The notes under the pieces are model-generated. The model did no database searches. It was not told the DNA's origin and was given only the letters and a program-made list of their open reading frames with translations. Positions 8,557 to 58,513 of a DNA stretch of 64,000 nt are shown here, in pieces. Both the position numbers and the translations under genes were made by a program. The stretch lies in IMG/VR virus record IMGVR_UViG_2061766007_000705; one strand, written 5' to 3'. This DNA is from a virus (lineage: Duplodnaviria > Caudoviricetes). Numbering within the stretch: the first letter of the stretch is position 1; each line of letters starts with the position of its first letter.

Positions 8557-9084
8557 ATGTATTTTGAAAAAGTAAGTTTTGAACAGTACAAGAAATCTAT
8601 TGGTGGAGACCTTACAGAAGAAGAACTCAAGTCAGAATATGATGATATTAAACTTCCAAAGAGAGCAACAAAATGGTCTGCTGGATATGATTTCTTTGCT
8701 CCATTTGATATTGACCTTGCACCTGGAGAGTCAATTGCAGTTCCAACTGGTATCAGATGGAAGTGCTCACACGAACTTGAAGTTATGAGTTTTGCAAAGC
8801 CTACATTTGTATTAAAAGTTTATCCTCGTTCTGGACTTGGTTTTAAGCATTTTGTTGGACTTGCTAATACAGTTGGAATTATTGATGAAGATTATTATCA
8901 ATCAGAAAATGAAGGTCATATCTTTGTCAAACTTGTTAATAATGGCAGTGAAAATGTAACAATTAATAAGAATCAAGGTTTTGCACAAGGTATTATTGTT
9001 AATTTCTGGGTGTGCGATGACGATACTGGTTTCATTGACGGCGAACAAAGAAATGGTGGTATGGGTAGCACAGATAACAAGTAA
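8557..9084 (+). CDS. dut: Trimeric dUTPase
   Basis: Five motifs: AGYDF, RSGLG, GIIDEDY, AQGI, RNGGMGST. Confidence 0.95.
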   Translation: MYFEKVSFEQYKKSIGGDLTEEELKSEYDDIKLPKRATKWSAGYDFFAPFDIDLAPGESIAVPTGIRWKCSHELEVMSFAKPTFVLKVYPRSGLGFKHFVGLANTVGIIDEDYYQSENEGHIFVKLVNNGSENVTINKNQGFAQGIIVNFWVCDDDTGFIDGEQRNGGMGSTDNK

Positions 9085-10627: not shown

Positions 10628-11353
10628 TTATAATTGGTTAGGATATAGTTCAAGTAATTTATCTAATGTCTGACCACCACATATACCATCTACTTTCAGT
10701 TTATATTTTTGTTGAAATAACTTAACTGCATTTTCTGTGTTTCCACCAAATAAACCATCTTCTTGAAGTTTTATCCCTAAATTACTTTGGTTTAATAACT
10801 CTTGTAACTTTTTAACCTCTAACACATATCCATCACTCTTTTCATCATTTTCAATACTAAGCGGATGCATTATTGTTTGAGATTTATAATTTGTAATAAA
10901 TTCTAATGGGTTTATTACTTCCCAATTCTTCTTATCTTTACTTATGTGAATTTCATAATGCAAATGAACACCTGCTGATTTTCCAGTGTTTCCCAATGTT
11001 GCAATTACTTTTCCAGCAAGACAAGAATCCCCTTTCTGTACTTTAATAGAACCATTAGCCAAATGTTGTGCTAAAAATCTAATGTAATACCCTTTAACCT
11101 TTCTATAAAATTGTAAAATTACAACATTACCTCTTGCATTATTCCAATATATATCTTCAACAATACATCTAAAAGGGGCATAGAGATTGCCTGAAGAAGC
11201 AATATCTATGCCATTATGAAATGTTCTTTTATGTGTTATAGGATGTATTCTATAACCATAATATGAAGATATGCGAATTGTGTCGCAAGGAAGATGTTGA
11301 CAAATAGAAGGTATTTTGTATGTCTTTTTTGTGTTCGTACTCATAATTATCAC
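10628..11353 (-). CDS. Endolysin: M23 peptidase plus peptidoglycan-binding domain
   Basis: HNGID and HLHYE zinc motifs; VKKLQ...DGLFG..T..AVK.FQ....LKVDGICG. Confidence 0.92.
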   Translation of the reverse strand: MIIMSTNTKKTYKIPSICQHLPCDTIRISSYYGYRIHPITHKRTFHNGIDIASSGNLYAPFRCIVEDIYWNNARGNVVILQFYRKVKGYYIRFLAQHLANGSIKVQKGDSCLAGKVIATLGNTGKSAGVHLHYEIHISKDKKNWEVINPLEFITNYKSQTIMHPLSIENDEKSDGYVLEVKKLQELLNQSNLGIKLQEDGLFGGNTENAVKLFQQKYKLKVDGICGGQTLDKLLELYPNQL

Positions 11354-11363
11354 CTTGCTTGTT

Positions 11364-14300
11364 TTAATCTTCTTTAATTAAATATATACGATATATAAAT
11401 GCTTCTCCAATACGAGGATAAATATACATATTACCTTGCCTTTGTTTTTGTCCAAATGTAAAAATATCTATATATTGTCTATCCGTTTGTTTGTCTGATA
11501 AAACATATGGTAATGTTAAAATTTCTCCAAGTCTTGTATCACCTTGTGTCAATGCATCAGTATAAGTATATTCATCGCCACTCATTTGATAACAAACATT
11601 CCAAAAAGTTGTTTTTGATGTGTTAAATCTAATACAATATACCACTTTAATCTTTTGAGCAGACAAACACCATTGTTCTTCAGATTTTTTAAAAGAACAG
11701 TCAAGAAGATTAAATCTTTCATACATCCAACTACCGCCATTTCCAACTTTTAAAATTAATGGGTCTCCTCGATATTCATAAACATTACTATTTTCATAAG
11801 CTCTCAAATCTTTATAAGTATAACCATAAGTATTGCCAGAATCCCAAAAATCATAAAGATACTTAACTTTATCAGATTGCCATATTGTATATACTTTAAA
11901 ATCTGTTCTACTAATATTAGCATTTGATTCATCTGCAATACATACACCTTTAGGTTGTCTTGTAGCAGTGTTCTGTCTTGCATCTTCAATTATAGTTAAA
12001 TCTGACAAATCTAAAAGAACACAATATACTTTTCGTTCTTTTGTTACTTCAACAAATGATTTATGAGCAATGAGACCAGTATAAAGTTTTTCAGCATATT
12101 CACTATTTCCTATTGCAACATTTTGTACATCATCATTTATTGATTGTGCTTCAAATATAACTAAATATTTTTCACCAAATTTAAGAGATTTTGCTTCACT
12201 AATATATTCTGCTGGTTTACATACATAAACATTATTAGCACACAAATCTTCACATTCAAAATAACCAAGACTTCCATCGTATGTGCATCTGCAATATACA
12301 CAATCATTAAATACACTAGTACAAGCATCAATATTTGTATAAACATCAATGCAAATATTGTTTTCATTGAATATTATATCATACTCATAATTATCATTTG
12401 ACAAATGACCTTTTTCATTTATTGCTAATTCTTCAATTGAATCACCAGAAATTTCATCCATTATAAATAAAGTATTATCTCCGTTATTATAAATATATAA
12501 ACCCTCATCATCTGTTGATTTAATAATTTCCGAATTATTCTTATCACTATAAAGACACCTAAACCAATTAATGTTTATTGTTGCTTCATCTCCATGTTTT
12601 AATTTATTATTAAAACAAATAGTATTTTTTATTTTATTCTTTGGCAAATTATTATAAGTTTGATAATTATTATCATATACTCCACCATGCACTAAACCAA
12701 TTGGTTCAACACCCGATAATGTCAAATTAATATTAGCACCGATGTCTACTTGATAATCTTGTACAAAAGCTGCTTGATTATTATATGATGCAACAAATCT
12801 ATATTGTTTTTGTGTATTTTCTAAATCTAAAGGTACATTAAAAGTCAAAGAATTAGCACCTTGAATTGCAGTACTTCCTTCATACCATTGATAAGTTAAA
12901 GGTTTATCACTAAGATAATCTAATGATTGAATGATTTGACCTTCAGTTTCATTATAACCATAACTAAGTGATTTTTTTATTACAGTCTGTTCATCAGACA
13001 AGATAACACAACAATTTTTCTTTCTTGCATAAAATCCATTTGGTGTAAATGTAATTGTCTCACCTTCAACTTGATTATCAACCATAAATCTTACATAATA
13101 CTCACCAGTGATATTTTCAACATTTAAGATAATGCTACCTTTTCCTTCATTGGTTATTGATGTATTTGTTTGAATATCAAAAGCAGGTTCATTATTTGTA
13201 CCATATTGGTCACTTTTAATAAATGTATCTAACCCAATATATATTTTACTATTTTCGCCTATGAGATTTGAAACTATATAATTTAAATATACTTCATCAT
13301 AATTAGTGACATCAATTGGAGATTTAGTAGTATAGCCACACATACAATGTATTAAATTATCATTTTTTACAATTGTCGAGTTTCCTTGTCCACTCCATTG
13401 ATTATTACTATATGATTTATTCCACTTAATTTGTCCAATATTATAATAATTAGGACGAAGTGCTTTGTGTTTAGTAATTTGAAGTGAGTTAATTGCAGTT
13501 TTTTTATTAACGATATTTGTATTAAGATGAGAAGTTACTTGACAATAATAATATCTCTCTTTGTTTATCACATCATTAAATATAGGCTTATAAATTTGTT
13601 CAGTTGCACCATTAATTATTATTAAATGCTTAGTACTATACTTATTCTTATATGGGTTTTCATACCATTGATATGTAAATGTATGATTCTCTATTGGTTC
13701 AACCTCAGCCTTAAGAGAATTATCTGTAAGAAGCGTAAGAGTTACTTTTGGAGTAGTTGCAGATGTTTCATCAGCATTAACACTAAAACTAATAATATTT
13801 GAATTAAGAGTTTCAGTTAACCTACTTTCAGTTCTTAAAGCAGTAACACTACAATAATAATATTCTATTGTTTCACCTAATTTACCAATAGGGATATTAT
13901 ATATAGATTCAATAGCATCATCTATTTTTTGTGCATTATAACCACTTAAATCATCACATTTATACCACTGATACGATAAAGTGTGATTATCTTCCACCGT
14001 TGCTTCAATACTAATTGATACAGATTCGTAACCATAATCAACTGTAATATTTTGTGGCTGAGTAACAATTGTCGGTGGAGTTGCAGGTATCATATTTTTC
14101 TTTGATAAAGATTGTGGAATTAAATATACTCTATGTATTCTTATATCGGCAGTTTGTTCAGGATAATAGAATGAACTTGCACCAAAATTAAGATAATAAG
14201 AACCAGTAACAGAACTTATATCCATTTTCTTTGTATGTAATTTTAAATCTGTATAATTAGCAAAATCACCAGTGCAATTACCAGTATAATCGAATCTAAC

Positions 14301-17300
14301 ATAATCATTATATGCTCCATTTCTTGGCTCATTACTTAAACCTAAATCAATGGAATGTTGTTGAGACCAAGCATCACCCAATGCAACATATTGAAAATCA
14401 ACGCATAATTTATCATAATACGTTAAATCAACTGGTTGGTCTGTGCAGTATCCGCTACTACCATATAATGAAGTAGAATCATCTACTAATCTCATATATC
14501 TACTTTCTTTTGTTCCACCAAATCCAACTGTTCCAAAATATGTAGAGTAGAATTTATTATTCCAACCACCTACAATTTCCGCACATTCGTCACCTTGATT
14601 ATAAACCATAACTGGTTCTGCTTCTATTGTAACTGTTGATATATCAGATAACGTAACAATAGATAAATTGTCCATTAAATTAGTGTATCTTGTTGTGGTT
14701 AATTCACAATAATAATATAAAACAGTACCATTCATTTCACCTAAAGGAATTTCAAATGTAGAATTTGTTGCTCCTTCAATTAAACGTGAATGTGTTTTTT
14801 CCAAATCATCAGTTTCATACCATTGATAAGTTACATCGTGATTATTATCTGTTGTAGTAGTTATATTAATAACGTCAGATGTTTTATAATTACAAGGTAA
14901 TGTAATACTTTGTGGTTGTTTTACAATTGTTGCAGGTGTTGGAGCAGTATCATCATGTTTAACTCTAACTGTTGCTACATCTGTAATATAAGAAGCAGTT
15001 TTACCATTATTATCTCTCATTGCGCTAATTTCACAATAATAATAATTTGTACTACAACCTTCAAGACCATTTGATATATTATACGTAGAACTATTCGTAC
15101 CAACCTTGATAGGAGATTGTTTGTCAATTGTATTGCATTTATACCATTGATATTTAAGAGTGTGACCTGCTAAATCTACTGTAGGGGTTACAGATAATAT
15201 TTGATTATTATAACCATAATCTAATTCAAGAACATTTGTTATGCTATGTATAGGTTGTACCGCTGGGTCATCTGTGGCATCTTCAAGTTCTATATTACCA
15301 CTTGTTTTACCATTTTCATCTATCATTGTATAAATGAAAACATTGGAAAGGTAACCACCACCATCAAAAGATAAATCAAATAATTCATTTTTATCTTGGT
15401 CTGTAAGGTCAATTTCAATATAATAAGTATGATTTGTATTAGAAGTTTTAATATTTTGTTCATCTATATCATAATTAATTTTTAATTGTTCATTATCATC
15501 GTTTTGATAGTCAAATAAAACAATATATTTTTCTTTACCCTTTAATACATTTAATAACTTAATATTATCATTAATGCCAACCTTATTTCCTTTATAATCA
15601 TCGTCAATAAATATTGTGGTGTCAGTACTTTGTGTACTTGCCCATTTGTCAAATAAAATATGCCTTTTATAAGCAAATGTTTTAATATTTTCAACTCTAT
15701 GGTCATTATAATAATCAATTAAACTATATAAAGCATCCAATGTGTTGTTTACATTTTTAAGAATATCATCATATGTAATAATATAAAATGGTGAATTTAA
15801 CATATTAAATGATAAATTTTGTGTGAAATATTCTTTCCACCATTTATATTTATCAGATTCACATACAATAAAAAATGCAATATTTGGATTATCTGTTTGA
15901 TTAGTCTCAATGATTAAAGAAACTATTTCGTTACAATCATCATCAGATGAGCATATACAAAAACAACAATCTGAAGATAATACATCATTACGATTGTATG
16001 TAAAATTATTTTTTTTAGATACACATTTGGATGACCATCCAGTACCATCCCCACCATAATAAATACTTATAGCATTATTAATTTCATTATAAAATTTAAC
16101 AACTTTACTATCTGTTTCGTTTTTATAATATAATAAATAATTTATTGTGTAATCAGGTAAAACGGCAATACTAGTAAATGTTCCATCACATCCACCTGTT
16201 CCACTACAACGTTTTGAATAAGTTCTTTGTAAAGTAAACAAGAAATTATCTTTAAATTTTTCACCACCAAGGGGACTGCGGAAAGTTGATTCTTCCCAAC
16301 CATCAACACTAATATAAGAACTCCATTCATTTTTCTTACGTACTACATCAAATTTAACATAACCATTTATTGGTAATTGTTTTAATATATATGTCATTAT
16401 TTCTTCAGCACGTGATTGCGAAGGGAGTATTGGTACATCTTTCAAAGATTCATAAGTAGTAGGAATATCACTAATGCCAATAAATGTATGAATATTTACA
16501 AGGTCTTCTCTGCCTTCTTCGTAAAGACATTGGATACCATTTTTTTCATCTTGATTACCAACGATAATAAAAATATCGGGATGATTTTTATTGCATTTTT
16601 CCCAATATTTTGCTTCTTCCCAAATTTCATTTAAAGCGCAATCAAAATTACCATAATATCCAATATTATAAGTTTCAACACCATTAAATGACTTTAATCC
16701 ATAAAGACCATCTACAATTTCATTAATGGCATTAATATCTTCAATATCATTACTAATAGATAAAACACCAATTTTAATCGGAGTTTCCCAATAGTCTTCC
16801 AACATTTCTTCACATTCTGATTTAGTCATAAATGTTTCAGACAAACGTTCTTCTCTCATATCTTCATTAATGAAATAAATTTTTTGAATTTGACAAGAAT
16901 TATTAGCCATAATTCTAATGTAGAATTCATCAACAATATCATTAATGTCAACATAAGTATATCCTAATGTCGTTGTGACATTTGTAAGTGTTTTATCAAA
17001 CTTATTGACTTTACCTTTATTCTTATCTCTTAATTTAGTATCTAAACCAATAGTAATTGAACCTGTATGTTCTACACATAATTTGGTATAATTATTTAAA
17101 TTAACCTTAACTTGTGTAGAAAAACCACTGCCATTATTTAATTCAAGATACTTTTCTTTTTTATTACCACTAAACGAGGTAGATGAATAACAACCATCAC
17201 CCCAAGTACCAGTAATATGAGGATTTTCATCACCATAATTATAAAGATAAAGCATTTCTTGATTTGGAGTAGGAGTAACAAACCCCCTCAGTAATTGAGG

Positions 17301-17732
17301 GGGCGTATTTTGATTTTGTCTATTTGTACTAAATAAATATACTTCTAAATTACCTATAAATGATGCTTTATCTTGAACTTCGGATTCTTTAAAAATATAA
17401 GAGGAACGGAATTTTCTTCTTTCTTTTAATAATGGTTGATATTGGTCATATACACTATCTGCACAAATAATAAATACTGATACGCTATTACCCATAATAT
17501 TATATATGTTATCAAGATATTGATTTATTTTATTATAGTCTTGCTCAGAAGCACAACCTAAGAAAAAACCTTTTGCATCGTGACGAGCCTTAGAAATTAC
17601 ATTATCTTCATATCGAAGATATTGAATTCCTTTTTTGTCAAAATAATCTTCAATTAATATTGATAATTGATTAGCGCAACTTAAATCACTTAATTTTAAT
17701 AAGTTCAAAAAAACTAATTTGGAAGAATCCAT
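11364..17732 (-). CDS. Giant multidomain protein (2122 aa): at least 5 Ig-like domains, repeated beta domains and alpha/beta domains including one KamE-like domain; putative virion adhesin
   Basis: Five YQWY-containing Ig-type repeats (four with YYYC); YNxGD...W repeats; lies between tail and lysis genes. Confidence 0.7.
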   Translation of the reverse strand: MDSSKLVFLNLLKLSDLSCANQLSILIEDYFDKKGIQYLRYEDNVISKARHDAKGFFLGCASEQDYNKINQYLDNIYNIMGNSVSVFIICADSVYDQYQPLLKERRKFRSSYIFKESEVQDKASFIGNLEVYLFSTNRQNQNTPPQLLRGFVTPTPNQEMLYLYNYGDENPHITGTWGDGCYSSTSFSGNKKEKYLELNNGSGFSTQVKVNLNNYTKLCVEHTGSITIGLDTKLRDKNKGKVNKFDKTLTNVTTTLGYTYVDINDIVDEFYIRIMANNSCQIQKIYFINEDMREERLSETFMTKSECEEMLEDYWETPIKIGVLSISNDIEDINAINEIVDGLYGLKSFNGVETYNIGYYGNFDCALNEIWEEAKYWEKCNKNHPDIFIIVGNQDEKNGIQCLYEEGREDLVNIHTFIGISDIPTTYESLKDVPILPSQSRAEEIMTYILKQLPINGYVKFDVVRKKNEWSSYISVDGWEESTFRSPLGGEKFKDNFLFTLQRTYSKRCSGTGGCDGTFTSIAVLPDYTINYLLYYKNETDSKVVKFYNEINNAISIYYGGDGTGWSSKCVSKKNNFTYNRNDVLSSDCCFCICSSDDDCNEIVSLIIETNQTDNPNIAFFIVCESDKYKWWKEYFTQNLSFNMLNSPFYIITYDDILKNVNNTLDALYSLIDYYNDHRVENIKTFAYKRHILFDKWASTQSTDTTIFIDDDYKGNKVGINDNIKLLNVLKGKEKYIVLFDYQNDDNEQLKINYDIDEQNIKTSNTNHTYYIEIDLTDQDKNELFDLSFDGGGYLSNVFIYTMIDENGKTSGNIELEDATDDPAVQPIHSITNVLELDYGYNNQILSVTPTVDLAGHTLKYQWYKCNTIDKQSPIKVGTNSSTYNISNGLEGCSTNYYYCEISAMRDNNGKTASYITDVATVRVKHDDTAPTPATIVKQPQSITLPCNYKTSDVINITTTTDNNHDVTYQWYETDDLEKTHSRLIEGATNSTFEIPLGEMNGTVLYYYCELTTTRYTNLMDNLSIVTLSDISTVTIEAEPVMVYNQGDECAEIVGGWNNKFYSTYFGTVGFGGTKESRYMRLVDDSTSLYGSSGYCTDQPVDLTYYDKLCVDFQYVALGDAWSQQHSIDLGLSNEPRNGAYNDYVRFDYTGNCTGDFANYTDLKLHTKKMDISSVTGSYYLNFGASSFYYPEQTADIRIHRVYLIPQSLSKKNMIPATPPTIVTQPQNITVDYGYESVSISIEATVEDNHTLSYQWYKCDDLSGYNAQKIDDAIESIYNIPIGKLGETIEYYYCSVTALRTESRLTETLNSNIISFSVNADETSATTPKVTLTLLTDNSLKAEVEPIENHTFTYQWYENPYKNKYSTKHLIIINGATEQIYKPIFNDVINKERYYYCQVTSHLNTNIVNKKTAINSLQITKHKALRPNYYNIGQIKWNKSYSNNQWSGQGNSTIVKNDNLIHCMCGYTTKSPIDVTNYDEVYLNYIVSNLIGENSKIYIGLDTFIKSDQYGTNNEPAFDIQTNTSITNEGKGSIILNVENITGEYYVRFMVDNQVEGETITFTPNGFYARKKNCCVILSDEQTVIKKSLSYGYNETEGQIIQSLDYLSDKPLTYQWYEGSTAIQGANSLTFNVPLDLENTQKQYRFVASYNNQAAFVQDYQVDIGANINLTLSGVEPIGLVHGGVYDNNYQTYNNLPKNKIKNTICFNNKLKHGDEATININWFRCLYSDKNNSEIIKSTDDEGLYIYNNGDNTLFIMDEISGDSIEELAINEKGHLSNDNYEYDIIFNENNICIDVYTNIDACTSVFNDCVYCRCTYDGSLGYFECEDLCANNVYVCKPAEYISEAKSLKFGEKYLVIFEAQSINDDVQNVAIGNSEYAEKLYTGLIAHKSFVEVTKERKVYCVLLDLSDLTIIEDARQNTATRQPKGVCIADESNANISRTDFKVYTIWQSDKVKYLYDFWDSGNTYGYTYKDLRAYENSNVYEYRGDPLILKVGNGGSWMYERFNLLDCSFKKSEEQWCLSAQKIKVVYCIRFNTSKTTFWNVCYQMSGDEYTYTDALTQGDTRLGEILTLPYVLSDKQTDRQYIDIFTFGQKQRQGNMYIYPRIGEAFIYRIYLIKED

Positions 17733-17743
17733 TCAAACACCCC

Positions 17744-20700
17744 CTATTCTGTTATCATTCCGTTGTTCATAGCATTAATTTCATTATAGGTATATTTTAC
17801 TTTATCAATCTTAGATAAATCAGTTGCAATTCTGTGAACAATGTAAGTTATAATATGCTCCGCAAATACACTGGAAGGAAATGCAGTATCAAGACCTATA
17901 TCTTTGCCAAATTCATTTGCAGTATCTAACGTATTATATGTTTTAGAATCAACAATACCAATTTGTAATTGATTATTATAAAAACCATACTGTTTTGCCA
18001 AGTCTAACATTTCTTGGAACTTGTATTTATCAACAGTTTCTCCTACATATATAATAGCATCTGTTGTTTTAAGTTTGTCATCTTTTATAAAAGACCTTAA
18101 GTCTGCTTCATTTTGAATAACACCAAAATTATTTACTGTAACATTTGAAAAATTAGAAAACTCTTGTACAAGAGAATCAAGACAATTTTCATTTTGGTCA
18201 TCCAAAGAGACAAAAGAAACATTAAGTTTCTTTTTAATGTTCTTATTGATGTAAATATCAGCATCTGATGATGTATATACGGTTTCATCTGGTGGTGTAA
18301 CAAAATGTCTATATTTATTTTTAGGTATTTCAAAATAAATTGTATGTATATTTAATTTAAGTATTGCTGTACCATAAGTAGGAGAATTACTTTGAGCAAC
18401 AATTTTAATACTATATTCTCCAGTTAATTCCCTAACATCTAAATCTAAAGATGTTTCATTAGGAGATACGGATATTGATTTATTTGAATCTACCAATTCA
18501 ACTTTTAATGAACCACCATATGGCGCACTGCCCTCAAATTCAAATTTTAAAAACATCAAATCAGTTACATCTATTTTATTCTTAGATATTGATGTAATAT
18601 TACACATAACCAATGAACCAGTAGCATTATAATTTATTGAAAAAATACTATCATTATCCCAACCACCAATTATATCATTATATTGTGTATCTTCTTTACG
18701 TAAATAAATTTTTTCCATTGGTTGATGTATTTCTTCATATTCTTTTAATTTGTTTTCTATATTTTCTTGTCTTTGTTGATGTCTTTGCTCTCTCTTTTGT
18801 TCTTCTTGCTCATTATCATAATGAGGTTCTTCAAATATAGGTGGAATACCATATTCTTCTTCATATTCATCGACCTCTAAATCATCAATTGCAAGTTGAT
18901 AAATATCATCATCTTGAATAACATCTTCTTCTTTAGCAATTAAATATATCTTATATATTTTAATTGCAACATTACCATAATTTGTTGATGAACTTAATTT
19001 AATATAATATTCTCCAATTACATTGTCAATGTCAAGAATAATTGTTTCTTTTGGATTATTAGAATTTTTATATTCTTTTGATATAATATATTCTGTATCA
19101 TATTGAATATCATTACTTATATCAGACGACAATCCTACATTTAATGACCAATTATAATAACTATTTCCATTACCTGTTTTTTCATATTCAATATATATTT
19201 TAGAATATTTAGTAAAATCAAATTTATTTTTAGAACTTAAAGCGCATTGCATATCAGTATATTGATTGGTCGTTGTATTTAAAGAGATATACGATAATTG
19301 TGTAGTTGCAGTTGCATTATTCCCATACAAACTAATATATCCACCAGTCCTATCCCAATATTCATTACCTTTATTATAAAGATATATTTTATTAGGAACT
19401 GGAGCATCTGGTTCATATAATTCTGGTAATGGTTCTTGTGTTGGAGTATACTCATAACTCAAATCTTCGTCATATTCATCCAAATAAATATTAAGTATTT
19501 TTAAATTATAGGTTTCCTCATAATATTTATTTCCCATTACAAAGTTTACATAATATTTACCTTTGACATTGGTAATATCTAATTCTTTTTTATATGTTGT
19601 ATTTAATGATAAGTCTGAATAACTCACAATAGGATTGATTTCAGAAGCACCAAATATACTATTAGTATTTGCTGGTATATCTTTATTACCATCAATATAA
19701 ATACTTCCAAAATACTCAGAATTTAAAGTAGTATGCAACCCAATTAAAAAATCAGTGTATCCATAATTATTAATAGTTGGTTGTCTAGTAGGTAATACTT
19801 CAAATTGATATTCAATACAAAATTTTTTATAATTAGAAATGTCAATTCTTTTATCGGTAGACAGTCCACCACAACGCCTTTCGTTGTTAGAAAGTAATTG
19901 TATATAATTTGGTTGTCTTACAATATTTGGTGGATAGTGTCTATCAGATGAAACATATCCACCTGTAATATAACAGTCTCGATAATGTATTTCATTCCAA
20001 CCATTTGTAATATCCGTACATTCATTACCTTCATTATACAAATAAATCCTATTATCATTAGGATATTTCTGTTTTTCTGTTTTCAATATACAATTCAATA
20101 TATAATTTGCATCTTTACTATCAGTAAATCCAAAATCATATCCAAACTTTTGCGCTATATTATTAGCAACTTCACTATTACAATATTTAGAAGATAAAAG
20201 AAGAATGTTTTTAGTATTGTTTAAATTATTTTGCTTAATTTCATCAACTATATTTTCACAATGCTTTTGTATATTACGTTTTGTCAAACTACCATCTGCA
20301 AATAAAAGAATGTCTATATTATTAAATTCATTATTTTGAATTAAATTATTTAATCTTTCGCTATCTACATAGTCAAAATTATAAAAATTAATATTCTGAT
20401 ATGTTTGTAATTCTTTCATTAAAGAATATGTGTTTGCGGTGATTTCATCTAAGCAACACAAACCTATATTTAATGAATTGTTAAAATATTTACCAATATA
20501 TTCTTCACATTCATTTTTATTACACGTTTGTTCTAATATTTCGTTTTCTTGCAAGTCAATTTTTGTTTTAGAGTTTTTATTATCAATTAAATAAACATTA
20601 TGAATTTGAACATCACAACCACCATATCTAAACCAACTTCGTACACTAAAATAAACATAATATTCACCTTTAAATGTTTTAATATTTAACTTTTTAATAT

Positions 20701-21586
20701 TATGACCATTTTTTTGATAATCTTCATTATCATCAAGATTTAAATTTGCTTTATCTACTTCAAATAGTCTGAGACTACTAATAGATAAATTATATCCACC
20801 ACTTCTTAATGTATCGGTGATACTTATGTCAAATGTTGAATTGTTTAAGGTATTTGTAGTATATTCAATACACAATTCTGTATAATTTGTTAAATCAATT
20901 TTATTCAATGTTGTAAATCCACTCGCAAAATCACAATTGTCAGTAGATTCACAAATAACAGATAAATAATTTTTATTTATTTTAGTACCATTATACCCAT
21001 TACGATATGTCAAATAATTTGAAGTCCACCCACCCGTAGTATCAAAACACATATCTCCTTTAGTATATAATGGAAGTATATCTTTCGGCTCATTGTTTGG
21101 GTTATAAGTATCTAAAAAACTTATATTAAAACCTTTACCACATATATGTTTTTCAAATTTAATATAATTAACAGTATATTTTGCCGAATCATATGTGAAT
21201 CCAATATAATATTTACCTTGTATATTGGATGTATCTACAGTTTTTGTATAACCCCTTTTTATTGTAGAACTACGATAATAAGAAAAAATTGTTTTAACAA
21301 AATTCTTATTTTCATCATATAATCTTATTTCATAAGTATATCTATAAGTATCAATATCAGTAAACGATGTTTGAATTTGTGTAATTTGATTACTTCCAAA
21401 GGAAGAGAAATTAATCATTTCAGTTGACATATATAAATTAGAAGAAACTGTCCATTGCATAGTATCAGTATGTATATTTGTCGGATAAATTTGAACGGTT
21501 TCTATACGTGGTGTATTTTTTATTTTTTCTTCTTCTTCATGAATTATATCATACTTTGTTTTTCTCTTTTTGTTTTTATCAAACAT
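17744..21586 (-). CDS. Large repeat protein (1280 aa): 4-5 repeated beta domains plus two KamE-like alpha/beta domains; putative virion accessory protein
   Basis: IYLYNxGxE...GGW...KID.T.Y...G.YY...I..IYL repeats shared with the neighbouring gene. Confidence 0.7.
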   Translation of the reverse strand: MFDKNKKRKTKYDIIHEEEEKIKNTPRIETVQIYPTNIHTDTMQWTVSSNLYMSTEMINFSSFGSNQITQIQTSFTDIDTYRYTYEIRLYDENKNFVKTIFSYYRSSTIKRGYTKTVDTSNIQGKYYIGFTYDSAKYTVNYIKFEKHICGKGFNISFLDTYNPNNEPKDILPLYTKGDMCFDTTGGWTSNYLTYRNGYNGTKINKNYLSVICESTDNCDFASGFTTLNKIDLTNYTELCIEYTTNTLNNSTFDISITDTLRSGGYNLSISSLRLFEVDKANLNLDDNEDYQKNGHNIKKLNIKTFKGEYYVYFSVRSWFRYGGCDVQIHNVYLIDNKNSKTKIDLQENEILEQTCNKNECEEYIGKYFNNSLNIGLCCLDEITANTYSLMKELQTYQNINFYNFDYVDSERLNNLIQNNEFNNIDILLFADGSLTKRNIQKHCENIVDEIKQNNLNNTKNILLLSSKYCNSEVANNIAQKFGYDFGFTDSKDANYILNCILKTEKQKYPNDNRIYLYNEGNECTDITNGWNEIHYRDCYITGGYVSSDRHYPPNIVRQPNYIQLLSNNERRCGGLSTDKRIDISNYKKFCIEYQFEVLPTRQPTINNYGYTDFLIGLHTTLNSEYFGSIYIDGNKDIPANTNSIFGASEINPIVSYSDLSLNTTYKKELDITNVKGKYYVNFVMGNKYYEETYNLKILNIYLDEYDEDLSYEYTPTQEPLPELYEPDAPVPNKIYLYNKGNEYWDRTGGYISLYGNNATATTQLSYISLNTTTNQYTDMQCALSSKNKFDFTKYSKIYIEYEKTGNGNSYYNWSLNVGLSSDISNDIQYDTEYIISKEYKNSNNPKETIILDIDNVIGEYYIKLSSSTNYGNVAIKIYKIYLIAKEEDVIQDDDIYQLAIDDLEVDEYEEEYGIPPIFEEPHYDNEQEEQKREQRHQQRQENIENKLKEYEEIHQPMEKIYLRKEDTQYNDIIGGWDNDSIFSINYNATGSLVMCNITSISKNKIDVTDLMFLKFEFEGSAPYGGSLKVELVDSNKSISVSPNETSLDLDVRELTGEYSIKIVAQSNSPTYGTAILKLNIHTIYFEIPKNKYRHFVTPPDETVYTSSDADIYINKNIKKKLNVSFVSLDDQNENCLDSLVQEFSNFSNVTVNNFGVIQNEADLRSFIKDDKLKTTDAIIYVGETVDKYKFQEMLDLAKQYGFYNNQLQIGIVDSKTYNTLDTANEFGKDIGLDTAFPSSVFAEHIITYIVHRIATDLSKIDKVKYTYNEINAMNNGMITE

Positions 21587-25704: not shown

Positions 25705-26913
25705 CTAACCAATTGACGGATAATATGGTAAACTTCCTACATTAGAGCAAGTAATTGTTATTGTAGAATCAGTCGCTAATGGAATACTAATTGACTGAAT
25801 AACAAATCTACTTTCTTCAAAATTATAATATTTATCTGTTAATTTGATACAATTATTTACATCCAAATGTATCATATAAATTGAACTAATATTAATTGTT
25901 TGTTGCAAGATACTAATTTTATTCAACTCATATTCTGCTCTTTGTTGTGCTAATTCAGTTGAATGTATATTTGAATCTTCATAATATAAATTTTTTGTAC
26001 CAATTAAAGAAATACGTGTAGGACTTTGCGGATTATGATTTTCTGCTACACCACGATAAATTGCTTGTGAAGAAGTATTAGAACCAATTATAATTACACG
26101 ATTTTTAACTTTACTAAAATCGTATGTAGTTTCGGAACTTATATATTCCATTTCATTAGTAGTATATTTCCATAATATAGGTTTATTAACATTCGCAATA
26201 TCTTCAATACCAGAGCGAATATTTAAATATCCATTTTCATCATAATAAATATCACAGCCAAGCATTTCTGCTAATTCTATTAATATAGAACCTAAAGATT
26301 CATTAGGAGATTTAGATATGCGATACACTGTCGTTTCATGTGCATACATACTATCAAACATTACATCTTTAATGTCAATAGGTAATCCGTTACCATTATC
26401 TAATTTTAAAATGTATTCACAAGCATCTCTTACATTAGAGTTAACATTAACTTCATATACTGCATCTAATACACCACCAAGTGTACCATCTAATAACGCA
26501 AATTTATCATAACATTGAATGTTAATATTTTTTTCTCCATTATTATGTATTGAATTAGGATTTGCAATAACAAATATTCCAGCACTTTTATATATTTTAT
26601 CACCGTTGCTTGTTTCAATTCCCAACTCTAATTTAAATTTAGTATTAATCCAAATCAATCCTTGAATAGAAGGAGTGAACCGTCCATCCATATTGTTTAA
26701 TGTAAAATTTAATGACCTTCTTTGACCTTGGTTATAATTTATATTTAATGTGCCAGAATTAGCAATTAAATATTCTGTAATATCTTCACGCACTGATTCA
26801 TCAGCGTGTAATAATGATAATCTAAAAATAGGTTTTAAAATTCTACCTTTGATATTGTTGATATAATTATCATATGGATATTCATTAAAATTATAAATTG
26901 CCAAATAGTTCAC
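25705..26913 (-). CDS. Baseplate hub / Tal-like tail protein
   Basis: RRSLNFTL, YYDENG.L, NRVIIIG, A.QRA.YEL motifs; downstream of tape measure. Confidence 0.65.
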   Translation of the reverse strand: MNYLAIYNFNEYPYDNYINNIKGRILKPIFRLSLLHADESVREDITEYLIANSGTLNINYNQGQRRSLNFTLNNMDGRFTPSIQGLIWINTKFKLELGIETSNGDKIYKSAGIFVIANPNSIHNNGEKNINIQCYDKFALLDGTLGGVLDAVYEVNVNSNVRDACEYILKLDNGNGLPIDIKDVMFDSMYAHETTVYRISKSPNESLGSILIELAEMLGCDIYYDENGYLNIRSGIEDIANVNKPILWKYTTNEMEYISSETTYDFSKVKNRVIIIGSNTSSQAIYRGVAENHNPQSPTRISLIGTKNLYYEDSNIHSTELAQQRAEYELNKISILQQTINISSIYMIHLDVNNCIKLTDKYYNFEESRFVIQSISIPLATDSTITITCSNVGSLPYYPSIG

Positions 26914-29802: not shown

Positions 29803-32800
29803 TTAATTAAGGACTGCAACAAGATTTCTCATTTGACTAATAAAGTCATTCGCATCCTTGCAAGTAACATTCATAGTACTAATATTTACAGAATTATCTG
29901 AATTATTAGTAGTATTAGTATTATTACCAATCGCAGTATTTGGTATAGATTGAAGTTTTAACATATCAAATAATGATGAAGAACCATAAAGATAACGAAG
30001 TTCCGATAATCTTTTTTGGAAATCAATATTTGCAGACGGTTCAAGCATTTTCTTTGTAACATCAGGCGGAATAACTATTTCATTCTCAGTAGTTGCCTTA
30101 ATACCACCAAGACCATAGAGTACACCGCCACTGTCATATTTAATTGAACCATCATTTGTACTGTATGTTTTTCCATTCTTTGTGATAGTTGTTGAACCAT
30201 CAGAATTCTTTGTCCAAGTACTACCATCACTCATTTTTTGTTGTGAACCCGCAGGCGCAGAACCAATAAATGCGAGACCCGCAGCTGAACCTACATTATA
30301 ATTTCCACCACCACTTGATGATGAACTACCACTCGAACTACTACCACTACGATTTCCACTACCAGTATTACTATTATTATTTGTATTACCAGTGTTGTAA
30401 TTCTGAACTGATGCATTACCATATGCTGATTGGTTTGCCTCATTTCGTCTTGATGTTTCAGAAGCTGCATTGTTTAATGTTGCAACAACTTTATCGTATA
30501 CGGCATATAAATCATTATAATTTGCATCTGTTATAGTTGATTGACCATTGTTTGTAAAATTACTTAAATCAGCTATTTTAACTGAACCACTACCTTGTTT
30601 CATAAAAATACCGCCACCAGTTACAACGACTTCACCATCTTTTACATTAGTTAAAGTGTCTCCACCTTGTGGCATAAGATGTACTTTTACAGACGAACCG
30701 CTATTATCTGAAATTGTTGATTGTTTTGTTGAAGCAACCTTTTGGGTAACTCCATCACTTCCACCGTTTGCAGTCCATCCTTGTGTTATACCAGTTCCAT
30801 TAAGTGCTTTTATCCAATTTGTAGATTCTGCTTCCATTTGTTCTTGCAACTCATATTGAGCAATCATTCCAAGTAATTCTTCATAAGCCTTTTTAGCCCT
30901 ATTGCAAGCATCAACAAATTTATCAGCAAATGTATTAAATTTACTTGATTGAGAATTTAGCACTGTGTCAAATGTAGTCATTCCACGTGTTAAAATATTA
31001 CTAATATCACTTTCAGTTGCACTAATTTTAGTTTTTACACCATCAGCGGTTGTATTGACAACATTAATCACTTCGCCAGTTTTTGAATCAATTTGAACTA
31101 CAAGCCCATCTAGTTCGTTTTTAATAGCTTTATTAGTGTTTTGAGTAATAGTAGTGAGAGATTTTTCCGCTTCTTTTAAAATTTTTTCTCTTGCGTTTTT
31201 ACCAAGAGTAGCGTTAAGTGTTAAATCATCTTCAAATCTCTTTTGTTTATCAACAACATCTTGATATAATTGAACATAATCTTTCCAAGCATCAATTTCA
31301 GTATCAATCAATTTAACTCTTGCATCAGTTTGTTGTTCCACTAATTGAGTTTGTTTAGATTGTACATCACCTTGGTCTGCTTCCCAATGCCAACCTAACT
31401 TATCACTATAAACTCTCTTATTCTTTTGACCTTGAAGGAGTCTAATTTCTTCTTTAATAGCACTCACTTTACGCTCTTGCAATCTTGCATCAGCCATCTT
31501 TAAAGCATTTTGAAGTTCATTAAGAGCAGTGATTTTTTCCTCAGTATTTTCCAAAGAATAAGCAGTTTGTAATCTCTTTTCAGCCGAATCAACTACAGAC
31601 TGCAACCAACTTGCATTACTACGATAAATAGCACTTAATTCTTCATTACCTGCAAGCAACTCATCATTAGCACTTTTTTCCATTTCTAAAATCTGAACAC
31701 GATATTCGCCTAATTGTGTAATAACGTCTTTAGATTTTTCCAATGGAGTTATCTTTTCGTAATCAACTAAATCATCTATAATTTCAGGCAATTTAGATAG
31801 TGTGTTTTGATATTCTTTTGCTAAATCATAACTCTTTTCATAATTGTCAATGACTTTTCCCCAAGCATCTGCAATTTCATTAGCATAACGAACTGGGTCA
31901 AGTGCTTTAAGTTTACGCATATATTCATATGCATTTTTTGCAGCTGTTTCAGCAAGTTGAATAGATTTAGTATTGGCTTGTATCCAATCTGTACTACCTA
32001 AAACCGCAGTTGATTTAATAGTATTAAGAGCACTTAATTCTTGATTTAGTCTCTTTTCATTATAATCATAAGCATCTTTAAGTTTCTTCAATCTAAGGTC
32101 AGCAATTTTGTTTTCTGCTTCCCACCATCTTTCTTGAAGTTCTGTAATTTCTTCAGAAGATTCAGCATAACCCTTTTTACGAAGTTTATCTGCTTCTTCG
32201 TGTGCTCTATTCATAATAGACTGATAGAGTTGAATTTGCTTTTCATATTCTTCTTGATATGCTGGTTTACCAACTTCAAGTTTTTCTTGTTTATATTCAG
32301 ATAACTTAATAAGATGTTTTTGTGCTTTTAAGAAACTATCCCATTCTTTCAGAACATCTTCTTTAGTTGTTTTAGATGTACTACTATTACCATCATTTTC
32401 TTCGTCACCTGTTTCAGTAGTAGGAGTGGTAGTGTCTTTCTTTTTATTACGCATCATAGTTAAATGCATTAGATGTTCTTGTTGTTTTTCATCTTCCGCT
32501 ACACTAATCTTATTAACAGAATCTATAAAGCCTTGCGCCCATAAATCACCAGTTAATGTACCATATCTATGAGCAGTTCCTTTTATCCATTCAAATACTG
32601 AATTAAATTTACTTTTAATAGATTGTCTAACTTTATTCCAGGTACTATCAGAATTTGTTTGGATATTACTTAACATAGTGTTGATTTTCTTTTGAATGTC
32701 AGCATTAGTTAAATTTGTTTTACCATTAGCAATTTTTCTTAATTCATCTAATGTTAAACCTGTATTTTCAAGTACTGCATCTTTAATTTCTGGATTTGCT

Positions 32801-35800
32801 TCAAGTTCATCAGCAATTTCGGAAATCATATTACGCACACCTTGTTTAGTAGATTCGGTTGCATTTTCATCTAAATGAATTTGAATACCCATATCGGTTT
32901 GTTGAATTACATCTTCTAAACCTTCTAAATTTTCAAATATTTTGAACATATTAGAAAATGAACGACCATTGGTAATTTGTTCTTGAGTATTTTGTAATTC
33001 TTCTACAACTTTACCATTAGCATCAACCCATTTTTGTGATTGTTCATCAAATGTGGCATTCAATTCATCTGCTCTCATTGATAAAAGCGCATTAAGTTGT
33101 TCTACTTTATCAGCATAAAGTTGTGCATTACTAATTGCACCAGATTCCCATTGCTGATATGCTTGATTACCCAAGTCTGTAATTGTACTTAATTGTTCCT
33201 TTTGTAAATTTAATGCACTCTTGGTATCATTTTTATTTTTACCAAGATATTCATCTGAATCAAAATTATTGGTTAAATCGGCAATCTTACCAAAAGCATT
33301 ATCCAAACCTTCAACACCATCCGATGAAAGTTGTGTATTAATATCCTTTAATCCTTCTGCAAAATTTTTAAGACCAGTTTTTGTAGCATTATCGCTAATT
33401 TCATCTAATATTGTATTAGATTCATCAAGTCTTTTCTTTAAAATGGTATTAATACCTTCTGTTGTCATAGCGGTAACTTCGCCATACTTCATTAGATATT
33501 CATTCCACTGTTCCCATTGCGAAATTAATTCTTTATATTCATCTGTGCTTTCATCAGGTGCATATTGAAAAGCTGTGGTAAAATATTCATTGGTTTTAGA
33601 TATAAAGCCATCAATATTTTGTTTTACCTTAATATAATCACTTTGTTCATCTTTTGATAATTCATCACCTTTAGCAATTTTTTCTTCATATTTTTCCTTT
33701 TGCTGAATCCATCTATCAAATTCACCAGTACCAGTTGTTTCACTATAACCACCAAAGGCGTGTATGTTTGGTCCTGTATTTTCATTAAAAAATTTTGCAA
33801 ACTGTTGCTTTATTCCTAATTGAGCAGTATTATATGCTTCTTGATTTTTTAATTCAATTTCTTCTTTAAGTAATTCAATATTCTTTTCAAGAAGTTCTTT
33901 TTGAATTTGTAATTTTTTTAATTCATTTTGCTCAACTAATGTAGGAGAACCAATATTATTTAATTCATTAATTCTATCTTGAATAGTTTTTAATTCATCC
34001 GAAGCAGTATTAAGTTGATTATTAACTTCTTCTTGTTTTTCATTAATTCTATCAAGTTCTTTATCTACAGTTTTAGCAGTTGCACTATAGACACCTATAG
34101 CAGTCATAAAGGTTACAACAGTTGTTAACATACCTACAGGTGATGCTAAGAAATTAACAATACTTAGAGCAGTATTTTTTATTAATCCACCAAGACCTTT
34201 AAGAATGCCACCTTGTGCAACTAATTCTTGATTTTGTACTGCAATTTGAATAGTTTTTGCTTCTTCGGTAGTTAATTGTTCTTTTCCAGTTGTAGTAAGT
34301 ATTTTTTCAGTAAGAATTTGAATTTGTTCTTGTTTATTTTTACCACGAAGTAAAGCCAAATCTTTTTCATCTAATGCAACATCAAATTCTTTAAGTACCT
34401 TATCTTTAACACTTAATGCATATTCACTTTCTGTAAAAGCAATAATCTTTTTCTCTTTCAATAATTTTTCATCAATTAATTTATTAGAATAAGCATCAAG
34501 AACAAGTCCTTCTTCTTTAAGTTTATTTAATTGAGCAGTATCATCCCAAATTTTAACTTGTTGTCCATTGACAGGTATAGTTGCATTTTGAAGAAATGTT
34601 TTTTGTAATGATTTATTTTTCATTTGATTAAGTTTATCAACAAAATCTTCTGTCGTGGCATTACTAAGAATTTCACCACCAAATGAAACATCACCTAAAA
34701 GTTTAATTTGTTTTACAAATTCAGCAACTTTTGGAATTGCAAATTTACTTCCTAATACTGCTAAACCAGTACCTAAAGCAACTAATGGTGCTTTTACTTC
34801 AAAAAGACTTTTTGTTAATTTACCAAAAGCATTTGCTAAATCAAGAACAAATTTAACCGTTTCTTCAAATCCTTCTTGATATACTATTTCTTGGAATGTT
34901 GCTTTTAATTGATTTGTTTTTGCTTCAATAGATTGTAAGTATACTTCATATTTTTGTGCAGTATATCCAGTAGCTTCGCCAGCATCTTCAATGTGTTTCT
35001 TAACTAAATCCCAATTTTCCATAATAGCTAAGAACATTTCCTTCTGACGTACGCCTGCCATAGCAGTAGCAATTTGTTGATTTTGTACTTCGGTATTTTC
35101 TTTCCATTTTGCAGAAAGTTGGTCGAGCACATCAAACATTTCATAAATGTCGCCTTCAGTATTTCTAATTGAAATACCAAATTTATTTAATACTTTTTCA
35201 ACATCATTAATTGCTTCGCCTTCATCGTCAATATTCTTACCAGCTGCAATATTACTATATCTTGCAGTAAGTGTTTTAATACTTTCACCAATGGTGCTTG
35301 CACTTCTACGAGTTGTTTCGGAAACTGTAGTAATAATAGAAGCAAGTTCTTTCCACTCTATACCTGCTACTCTTGATGAGTTTGCAGAGTGTTGGAAAGC
35401 CTCAGCAATTTCTTGTGCGGAAGTAGCTGCGGTTACGTCTAATTTATTAAATACGTCTACAACTTCTTCTGCTTCATCAGCTGTTAATTTATAACCATTG
35501 AGAACTGCAATAAGTTTTTCAGAAGCATCATCAGAACTCATACCTGAAATCTTACTAAACATTGTAGAGATTTTTAACAATTTGTTAGTATCTTCTACAG
35601 ACATACCTGCTCTTAACCAAGTTTCAGCACCTTGAGCTACTGCATCTACAGTAGAACCAAGTTCTATAGCAAATTCTGAATATGTCTTTTTAAGTTGTTG
35701 CATTTGCTCATTGTTGTAATTAGTAACCATCTGAAGATTAGTAAATGCTTGATTCAATTCATTTATTGTACTAATTGCTTGTTTGAATGAGTTAATTGCA

Positions 35801-36930
35801 GTCCATAAAGTTCTATATACAACAGTATAGTTTACAATACGAGCAGCTGCATCTTTCCAACCTGAAGCAAGGTCTTTGAAGAATGTCTTAGTAATTGAAG
35901 AAGTAGCTGCATACTGTTGTCTAACTAATTTTAATCCATTAAGAGTTTGTTGTTTTACATTATCATATTGTGCTAAAACTCTTTGTGCGTTTTCAACTTC
36001 ACGTTGAGCATTTGCATATTTACTTTTAGAAACACCTTTTTTTCTAACTGCTTCGCCATTTTCATCTTTAATTTGCATATTGGATAAATTATCTTGAGCA
36101 ATCTTTAAACTTTCTTGTGCTTCTTGTTTCATTAAATCAAGATTTTGAATTCTTAATTTAATTTCTTTTTGTAAATCTGCAATATATGTTTTTCTTTCAG
36201 TAGTTTTATTGCCAGTTTTAGACATTTGAGTTTGTGTTTTAATTAACTCTTTTTGTAATTTTAATACTTGCTCTTGTTCAGTTTGATATTGTATTATATT
36301 ACGATTTGCATTTTCAAATGATAAACCAAAAGCATCATCATATCTTTTGTAATCAAAAGCTTCAGCTGCTTTTGCATATTGACCACCCATTGATTTAAGG
36401 TCAGTAAGCATTTTATCAAATTCTTTACTTAACTCATTATATCTTTTTTGTAGAATAGTTGCATTTTTACTATCCGCTTCAACTGGTAACAAGCCCTCTT
36501 TTTTCATTTGTTTGGAAACATCATTAAGTTCTTTATATTTAGTAGCGACATTTCCAATTTCTCTTGTATAAATTTTTGTTTGATTAATGGTATCAGTCAT
36601 TACGCCTACACCCTTTTTATTAAAGTTTGTAAAAGCGTATGTCATACCATTAATGGTCATAGTCATAGATTTGATACTTCCATCTGTAGCATCAATTATT
36701 CTCTGTACAGAGGTAACTTGACCTGCAAATTTTTTAGATAATTCAATTTTAGAAGCTTCTGACTTTATCTTATGTAATTGTTCAAAAACTGATTTATCAA
36801 TACCATATCTTAACTTAAATTCTCTATCACTAACACCAGCCTCAATTGATTTAGCAGCTTGGTTAATTACTTGGTCTATATTAGATTTAAATATAATTTT
36901 AAAATCTTCTCCCATAGTAGGCATAATCAC
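29803..36930 (-). CDS. Tail tape measure protein
   Basis: 2375 aa, helical; TP901-type core (AFTNLQMVT...IGESIKT...AGVRQ); C-terminal YDSGG...GG motif. Confidence 0.93.
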   Translation of the reverse strand: MIMPTMGEDFKIIFKSNIDQVINQAAKSIEAGVSDREFKLRYGIDKSVFEQLHKIKSEASKIELSKKFAGQVTSVQRIIDATDGSIKSMTMTINGMTYAFTNFNKKGVGVMTDTINQTKIYTREIGNVATKYKELNDVSKQMKKEGLLPVEADSKNATILQKRYNELSKEFDKMLTDLKSMGGQYAKAAEAFDYKRYDDAFGLSFENANRNIIQYQTEQEQVLKLQKELIKTQTQMSKTGNKTTERKTYIADLQKEIKLRIQNLDLMKQEAQESLKIAQDNLSNMQIKDENGEAVRKKGVSKSKYANAQREVENAQRVLAQYDNVKQQTLNGLKLVRQQYAATSSITKTFFKDLASGWKDAAARIVNYTVVYRTLWTAINSFKQAISTINELNQAFTNLQMVTNYNNEQMQQLKKTYSEFAIELGSTVDAVAQGAETWLRAGMSVEDTNKLLKISTMFSKISGMSSDDASEKLIAVLNGYKLTADEAEEVVDVFNKLDVTAATSAQEIAEAFQHSANSSRVAGIEWKELASIITTVSETTRRSASTIGESIKTLTARYSNIAAGKNIDDEGEAINDVEKVLNKFGISIRNTEGDIYEMFDVLDQLSAKWKENTEVQNQQIATAMAGVRQKEMFLAIMENWDLVKKHIEDAGEATGYTAQKYEVYLQSIEAKTNQLKATFQEIVYQEGFEETVKFVLDLANAFGKLTKSLFEVKAPLVALGTGLAVLGSKFAIPKVAEFVKQIKLLGDVSFGGEILSNATTEDFVDKLNQMKNKSLQKTFLQNATIPVNGQQVKIWDDTAQLNKLKEEGLVLDAYSNKLIDEKLLKEKKIIAFTESEYALSVKDKVLKEFDVALDEKDLALLRGKNKQEQIQILTEKILTTTGKEQLTTEEAKTIQIAVQNQELVAQGGILKGLGGLIKNTALSIVNFLASPVGMLTTVVTFMTAIGVYSATAKTVDKELDRINEKQEEVNNQLNTASDELKTIQDRINELNNIGSPTLVEQNELKKLQIQKELLEKNIELLKEEIELKNQEAYNTAQLGIKQQFAKFFNENTGPNIHAFGGYSETTGTGEFDRWIQQKEKYEEKIAKGDELSKDEQSDYIKVKQNIDGFISKTNEYFTTAFQYAPDESTDEYKELISQWEQWNEYLMKYGEVTAMTTEGINTILKKRLDESNTILDEISDNATKTGLKNFAEGLKDINTQLSSDGVEGLDNAFGKIADLTNNFDSDEYLGKNKNDTKSALNLQKEQLSTITDLGNQAYQQWESGAISNAQLYADKVEQLNALLSMRADELNATFDEQSQKWVDANGKVVEELQNTQEQITNGRSFSNMFKIFENLEGLEDVIQQTDMGIQIHLDENATESTKQGVRNMISEIADELEANPEIKDAVLENTGLTLDELRKIANGKTNLTNADIQKKINTMLSNIQTNSDSTWNKVRQSIKSKFNSVFEWIKGTAHRYGTLTGDLWAQGFIDSVNKISVAEDEKQQEHLMHLTMMRNKKKDTTTPTTETGDEENDGNSSTSKTTKEDVLKEWDSFLKAQKHLIKLSEYKQEKLEVGKPAYQEEYEKQIQLYQSIMNRAHEEADKLRKKGYAESSEEITELQERWWEAENKIADLRLKKLKDAYDYNEKRLNQELSALNTIKSTAVLGSTDWIQANTKSIQLAETAAKNAYEYMRKLKALDPVRYANEIADAWGKVIDNYEKSYDLAKEYQNTLSKLPEIIDDLVDYEKITPLEKSKDVITQLGEYRVQILEMEKSANDELLAGNEELSAIYRSNASWLQSVVDSAEKRLQTAYSLENTEEKITALNELQNALKMADARLQERKVSAIKEEIRLLQGQKNKRVYSDKLGWHWEADQGDVQSKQTQLVEQQTDARVKLIDTEIDAWKDYVQLYQDVVDKQKRFEDDLTLNATLGKNAREKILKEAEKSLTTITQNTNKAIKNELDGLVVQIDSKTGEVINVVNTTADGVKTKISATESDISNILTRGMTTFDTVLNSQSSKFNTFADKFVDACNRAKKAYEELLGMIAQYELQEQMEAESTNWIKALNGTGITQGWTANGGSDGVTQKVASTKQSTISDNSGSSVKVHLMPQGGDTLTNVKDGEVVVTGGGIFMKQGSGSVKIADLSNFTNNGQSTITDANYNDLYAVYDKVVATLNNAASETSRRNEANQSAYGNASVQNYNTGNTNNNSNTGSGNRSGSSSSGSSSSSGGGNYNVGSAAGLAFIGSAPAGSQQKMSDGSTWTKNSDGSTTITKNGKTYSTNDGSIKYDSGGVLYGLGGIKATTENEIVIPPDVTKKMLEPSANIDFQKRLSELRYLYGSSSLFDMLKLQSIPNTAIGNNTNTTNNSDNSVNISTMNVTCKDANDFISQMRNLVAVLN

Positions 36931-58223: not shown

Positions 58224-58239
58224 AAGTCTGTCTCCTTTC

Positions 58240-58513
58240 CAACTCAATTAAGAGTTAATTACTCACTCCGAAGAGTGGTTAAGCGTACCATCGCCAATGT
58301 TAATGAAAGGTTTTATATGTCTGCAACACTATCCCTACCCAACAAGATTGTTTAATCACAGACCGTAGTGTTTGGAACTTGGTACTACATTCCAAAGTAC
58401 CTATATATTCTCTCTTAACGTAGTTCTCGAAGAACTTAGGCTATTAAACTTGGGATACTAACAACCAAAGGCTGTCAAAATCCCCAATGTTTTAGCATCG
58501 TGGGCAATTTAAC
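58240..58513 (-). ncRNA. omegaRNA (HEARO-type) scaffold
   Basis: Conserved blocks CCTAAGT..ACTACGTT, ATATAGGTAC, GGAATGT..CCAAGTTCC, GATTAAACA, AACATTGGCGATGG directly upstream of iscB. Confidence 0.88.

Follow-up and report, generated by a model that had tools for sequence, protein, structure and literature searches.

Degenerate relatives of the cobalamin-binding domain of KamE in giant tail-module proteins of an uncultured phage

Siphophages of Firmicutes carry multi-domain adhesion proteins, such as evolved Dit/Tal and Bpp-type proteins, that contain carbohydrate-binding modules (CBMs) and immunoglobulin (Ig)-like modules; to our knowledge, no adhesion or tail protein contains a derivative of a B12-binding domain. 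Domains that hold base-off/His-on cobalamin are said to share the fingerprint DxHxxG ... SxL ... GG associated with Drennan, Ludwig and Matthews. In KamE, the beta subunit of lysine 5,6-aminomutase, His133 takes the place of dimethylbenzimidazole as the cobalt ligand, and Lys144, situated in the Rossmann domain, makes the imine with pyridoxal phosphate (PLP) (PMC3958899). Here we describe three domains (A, B and C) from a 64,000-nucleotide stretch of phage DNA (IMG/VR record IMGVR_UViG_2061766007_000705; the window, below) that have diverged far from the Rossmann-type domain with which KamE binds adenosylcobalamin, but are very probably true homologues of it. They lie in two giant open reading frames (ORFs), P0001 and P0002, and constitute a degenerate form of a domain that is known from elsewhere but new to this setting, seen so far in one uncultured phage that is known solely as a metagenome contig.

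All three copies are encoded on the minus strand. P0001 (17744..21586, minus; 1280 amino acids), which lies between tail genes and the endolysin, carries domain A (20057-20557; residues 344-510), the copy closest to KamE in sequence, and, at its C-terminus, domain B (17792-18319; residues 1090-1265). P0002 (11364..17732, minus; 2122 amino acids) carries the most diverged copy, domain C (16359-16865; residues 290-458), which nonetheless retains a YGL...YN(I/L)G segment of KamE. The initial annotation of this DNA had proposed three mutually similar alpha/beta domains, each directly behind a beta repeat and multiplied within the phage, and this proposal holds in all its parts. Each domain, of approximately 165 residues, was found within about 30 nucleotides of where it had been placed, and the position behind a beta repeat is borne out both by alignment of the repeats and by a structural model of the repeat together with its domain. 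Domains A and B share 25% identity over 154 residues (expectation value (E) 5e-10), and domain C matches A through its first half (E 2e-5) and B through its second (E 1e-3). The copies are nearer to one another than to KamE, and have in common both a set of derived losses and the preceding beta domain, as expected if amplification took place inside the phage. Moreover, residues 160-405 of P0001 are colinear with residues 153-364 of P0002 (BLASTP, E 1e-6), a block comprising the beta domain and the start of the alpha/beta domain, which indicates that the duplicated unit was the beta domain and alpha/beta domain together. When the window was searched with a profile of the three domains, no additional alpha/beta domain of this kind came to light.

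Kinship with KamE emerges from sequence profiles built and searched in several ways. Against 177,635 sequences from the Protein Data Bank (PDB), the three-domain profile returned KamE (1xrs_B) first, at an E of 3.3e-8 and with profile positions 6-161 aligned to KamE residues 97-256; the KamE entries 8t0v and 9q1a came next (approximately 8e-7), followed by ARF4 (6e-3). Ornithine aminomutase, glutamate mutase, methylmalonyl-CoA mutase, methionine synthase and all other B12 proteins were absent from the hits of this search at E<=10. Queried singly, domain A found KamE across its full length (E 0.004), and domain B matched KamE chains as its sole hits (E 0.5). Among the 18,950 models of NCBIfam, the KamE model NF052385 was the best match for A (2.4e-4, 20.9 bits) and the sole match for B (0.01, 15.5 bits), with none for C; these scores sit far beneath the family cutoff of 280 bits, placing the phage domains outside the equivalog. 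By means of a back-translated GYDAGFGPG motif, 120 loci were retrieved from genome contigs, and the 98 KamE ORFs that they yielded were assembled into a dedicated KamE profile. When the phage three-domain alignment was compared with this profile by hhalign, the two matched over 147 columns with a probability of 97.5% and an E of 6e-12, and the single domains aligned colinearly to the corresponding hidden Markov model (HMM) with scores of 24.6 (A), 11.0 (B) and 6.2 (C) bits. Shuffled copies that preserved composition attained the observed score in none of 500 trials for A, none of 500 for B and one of 500 for C, whose residues 7-69 align to HMM positions 92-158. The phage profile in turn scores every one of the 98 KamE sequences, with those from Fusobacteriaceae and Clostridia ranking best, an order that may be due to base composition.

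Structure prediction leads to the same family. An AlphaFold model of domain B (predicted local distance difference test (pLDDT) score of 81) has a predicted Rossmann-type B12-domain fold with a preceding helix, and Foldseek ranks KamE entries highest for it (template-modelling (TM) scores of 0.66-0.69, E between 5e-8 and 1.6e-7), followed by ornithine aminomutase and then glutamate mutase; domain A, taken from the model of the beta repeat and its domain, behaves in the same manner. The similarity to KamE includes the helix that precedes strand 1, and the nearest clusters in the ESM Atlas are those of B12-binding, KamE and OraE proteins. The initial annotation had argued for descent from KamE over a generic flavodoxin fold, and the structure search produced the result that had been fixed beforehand as support for that argument, with KamE first and ornithine aminomutase second; the KamE sequence strings that it gave also agree with the residues of 1xrs_B.

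Inspection of the former cofactor sites reveals losses at nearly every diagnostic position. The aspartate of the DxHxxG motif is retained in A, B and C, but the position of His133 is occupied by glutamine in B, isoleucine in A and glutamate in C, as judged by alignment, so that the cobalt ligand is missing from all three domains, as the initial annotation had noted. The motif glycine (Gly136) is replaced by asparagine in each of the three copies in a merged MAFFT alignment; hhalign sets this asparagine one column earlier, and by neither method does any copy have glycine at this position. The serine of SxL is glycine in B, aspartate in A and glycine in C, and the GG pair is replaced throughout, with an insertion of 4-7 residues at the same site in A and B. 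The loop bearing Lys144 has been deleted, by eight residues in A and B and by five in C, and no lysine remains there. Overall, identity to the KamE consensus stands at 20-23%, and of the 57 columns in which KamE shows the strongest conservation, 10-14 are kept; the KamE HMM is matched solely at positions 92-252 of 258, the N-terminal dimerisation domain of KamE (PF16554) being absent. No gene for the TIM-barrel partner KamD lies adjacent; the neighbours are tail and lysis genes. With His133 and Lys144 gone, the chemistry of the aminomutase appears to be lost, in accord with the non-catalytic repurposing that had been suggested for these domains. Because the whole fingerprint is affected (the histidine; the glycine, the SxL serine and the GG pair of the nucleotide-tail pocket; and, in A and B, the insertion), canonical base-off/His-on cobalamin binding by A, B and C is, on these residues, unlikely, and since all residues that anchor either cofactor have been lost, the domains most likely work cofactor-free.

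Comparison with described systems delimits both the resemblance and the departure. The likeness to KamE (1xrs_B, 8t0v, 9q1a; NF052385) is confined to the Rossmann domain, approximately residues 97-256, and the phage copies differ from KamE in that giant proteins contain the domain three times, each time after a jelly roll of CBM-like type, and in having lost the cofactor residues. Neither the B12 domain of ornithine 4,5-aminomutase OraE (3kp1/3kow) nor the base-off/His-on domains of methylmalonyl-CoA mutase, glutamate mutase S and corrinoid proteins give any sequence-profile signal, and the fingerprint motifs are absent from the phage domains. P0001 and P0002 resemble the adhesion and tail-associated proteins of Firmicutes siphophages in that their genes close the tail module on its distal side, ahead of the lysis genes, and in consisting of strings of CBM-like and Ig-like domains, although no sequence relative was found in any of the collections searched.

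The mutual closeness of the copies, their common losses and their common upstream jelly roll make one capture followed by duplication the simplest history. A KamE domain would have been taken once, long ago, from a bacterium and fused behind a CBM-like jelly roll, and the resulting didomain would then have been duplicated, both inside a giant gene and across to its giant neighbour. Many bacteria and archaea encode KamE while the phage domain is an orphan, from which we infer that the domain more probably passed from a cell to the phage than the other way; its low identity, together with a base composition like that of the host, suggests that the event is old. As for their present role, the place that P0001 and P0002 occupy is the one at which siphophages of Firmicutes encode proteins of the distal tail and of adhesion. 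This position, and the strings of CBM-like and Ig-like domains, lead us to regard the KamE-like domains as parts of a device for adhesion. From gene order, we infer that P0001 and P0002 are themselves distal tail or adhesion proteins of the virion. In such bead-on-a-string proteins, the KamE-like domains would form compact globular modules; the jelly rolls and Ig-like domains might contact glycans of the host cell wall, with the KamE-like modules providing them with spacing, rigidity or docking. A role of this kind, structural or adhesive and independent of cofactors, drawn from sequence and gene context, is the one we favour as reasonably probable.

Several observations weigh against this picture of KamE-derived, cofactor-free adhesion modules. 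A search of 1.84 billion protein representatives with the three-domain HMMER profile recovered only P0001 and P0002 at E<=1e-3, with no KamE representative at E 1e-3, which means that the sequence signal reaches significance just in targeted or smaller libraries; the size of the library and its clustering at 50% probably explain the missing KamE, since the profile scores some KamE sequences locally at up to 47 bits. The AlphaFold2 models were built from alignments of three and seven sequences and may lean on remembered KamE structures, in which case the evidence from fold and from sequence would not be fully independent. The model of jelly roll plus KamE-like domain has no confident packing between the two domains (predicted TM score 0.47, linker pLDDT <50). 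Relatives are also missing: a word-indexed search of 5.8 billion clusters (with B in its P0001 context, B alone and whole P0001) returned only the query, tblastn of P0001 and P0002 against 50,697 phage records gave no match, a profile scan of IMG/VR found no relative, a feature search of the ESM Atlas gave no usable match, and in BFVD, which yielded no close viral structure, all matches were to generic receiver and SGNH folds with E>=3e-4. As a result of this lack of relatives in the collections searched, conservation cannot be mapped onto the domains. Finally, the DxHxxG aspartate and a nearby asparagine are invariant at the former cofactor face and could mark a retained ligand site, and other Rossmann-type B12 domains, in the corrinoid iron-sulfur protein and in B12-radical SAM enzymes, bind cobalamin with no histidine ligand, so that loss of the histidine does not by itself exclude binding.

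The domains might instead have gained a new activity on small molecules or glycans, as an esterase-like enzyme or as a binder of sugars or nucleotides, in partnership with the CBM-like domain ahead of them, an arrangement known from CE2 esterases. The layout, in which an alpha/beta domain comes after a jelly roll, does resemble that of CE2/SGNH esterases, which are among the low-TM Foldseek matches of the didomain, viral SGNH hydrolases match at E ~1e-3, and phage fibres often carry esterases. However, no serine, histidine or cysteine is invariant among A, B and C, and neither GDS nor DxxH blocks are present, which sets the domains apart from the SGNH/CE2 families; the TM scores to SGNH proteins (0.2-0.45) fall short of those to KamE (0.67-0.69), and sequence profiles return KamE and no hydrolase. 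We therefore consider such a gain of activity unlikely.

According to a second alternative, the ligand hypothesis of the initial annotation, a non-canonical, His-off mode of corrinoid binding persists in the domains, and the tail carries or senses B12, for instance by engaging B12-uptake proteins of the host. The fold and ancestry, which are those of a cobalamin-binding domain, the invariant aspartate and asparagine, and the His-off binding in other Rossmann-type B12 domains would all fit this reading. Against it stand the replacement of the histidine, the motif glycine, the SxL serine and both glycines of GG in every copy, and the insertion in A and B, which falls where the dimethylbenzimidazole tail would pack. 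The Pfam B12-binding model (PF02310) matches none of the three domains even at E<=10, and the window contains no cobalamin riboswitch and, among approximately 25 of its proteins that were scanned, no B12-related family. Taken as a whole, residual corrinoid binding appears quite improbable, and neither the bridging to B12 receptors nor the protein-interaction mimicry raised in the initial annotation drew support from the analysis. Slighter still is the chance that KamE-derived domains displayed on the tail bind a corrinoid, or a corrinoid-like ligand of the host surface, in a new His-off mode through which B12 or the B12-capture machinery of the host would be used in adsorption or niche sensing. 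A generic flavodoxin-like domain (receiver, TIR or small-GTPase-like) that resembles KamE through convergence or composition is the least probable reading of all and is largely refuted, given that KamE came first in four tests with different libraries and over the full domain with its extra N-terminal helix, that the shuffles did not reproduce the scores, that the matches descend in a graded order from KamE through OraE and other B12 domains to generic folds, and that the nearest ESM Atlas clusters are of B12 type.

The remainder of P0001 and P0002 fits a host-adhesion context. Neither protein as a whole matches an informative family in Pfam or PHROGs, and no other ORF of the window is similar to either. 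The parts of P0001 are a beta region at the N-terminus, four jelly rolls of CBM-like type, the KamE-like copies A and B, and a linker that is acidic; P0002 contains jelly rolls, domain C, Ig-like repeats and other segments. The beta repeat ahead of the KamE-like domains has the predicted structure of a CBM-like jelly roll, and is found before A at 20558..21094 (minus), before B as a short version at 18320..18724 (minus) that aligns with the other beta repeats, and before C at 16866..17276 (minus). Two further jelly rolls of P0001, at 19481-20062 and 18872-19402 (together 18872..20062, minus), have no KamE-like domain behind them, and two further jelly rolls of P0002, at 14103-14627 and 13068-13490 (together 13068..14627, minus), have Ig-like repeats between them. 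At least five such repeats, with a recurring YQWY motif, alternate with jelly rolls across residues ~830-1650 of P0002, a protein that also gives sub-threshold Ig_3 and Hoc-like matches. The linker of P0001 (18650-18870, minus; residues ~905-980), strongly acidic, rich in glutamate and glutamine and of low complexity, separates the third and fourth jelly rolls and gives rise to a spurious Pfam match to NuA4. Two other segments of P0002, residues 1-150 and 580-700, have an alpha/beta-looking sequence pattern. Profile comparison of the alpha/beta-looking parts of P0002 (residues 1-150 and 455-700) and of the ends of both proteins revealed no relation to the KamE-like domains or to KamE.

The window has a G+C content of approximately 30%, and nearly all of its genes lie on the minus strand. 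Along the direction of transcription, the terminase, portal and virion proteins are followed by the tape measure (29803-36930, minus; 2375 amino acids) and tail proteins, among them one at 25705-26913 (minus), then by P0001 and P0002, and finally by an M23/PG-binding endolysin (10628-11353, minus) downstream of P0002; the two giant genes thus stand at the end of the tail module, preceded by the genes for the tape measure and for baseplate-type proteins and followed by lysis. Among described phages, the closest are the Thomasclavelia phages TR-TP1/TP2 from human faeces, and the relationship is distant: the tail protein is 29% identical to its TR-TP1/TP2 counterpart, and a YonO-type single-subunit RNA polymerase (59266-61941, minus; 891 amino acids; Pfam RdRP, E 3e-21) is 40% identical to the TR-TP1/TP2 enzyme and 23% identical to YonO of SPbeta. 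The genes for P0001 and P0002 are absent from TR-TP1/TP2. The giant tail-end protein has been recorded from two contigs, the longest of 68.4 kb and derived from a single public run.

Other genes of the window include a tyrosine recombinase (38262-39362, minus; Phage_integrase, E 4e-16), which the late operon contains immediately upstream of its tape-measure region, and a 400-residue fusion of PIN and PhoH (55481-56683, minus). An IscB-like protein with RRXRR and HNH domains (56970-58247, minus; 425 amino acids) is encoded directly downstream of a full-length HEARO/omega RNA (58279-58512, minus; 113.9 bits), and the pair (56970-58512) looks like an intact OMEGA-type RNA-guided nuclease unit within the phage. 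A dUTPase gene, so labelled by Pfam (8557-9084, plus), is among the very few plus-strand genes.

The literature searched contained no paper on a B12, KamE or aminomutase domain in phage tail proteins, and nothing relevant that brought flavodoxin-like domains together with tail fibres. The finding carries limited weight, given its origin in one uncultured phage for which no relatives were found, and a role read from sequence and models. Within those bounds, a domain of a cofactor-dependent radical enzyme appears to have entered proteins of a phage tail module, to have multiplied there and to have lost all the residues that anchor its cofactors. For B12 enzymologists, A, B and C would offer a naturally occurring form of the KamE Rossmann domain without cofactors, in which to ask what residues folding needs and what residues binding needs. 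Were corrinoid binding to prove true, phage adsorption would be tied to the vitamin B12 ecology of anaerobic communities. For phages themselves, the KamE-like domains would widen the known repertoire of building blocks from which host-adhesion devices are made.

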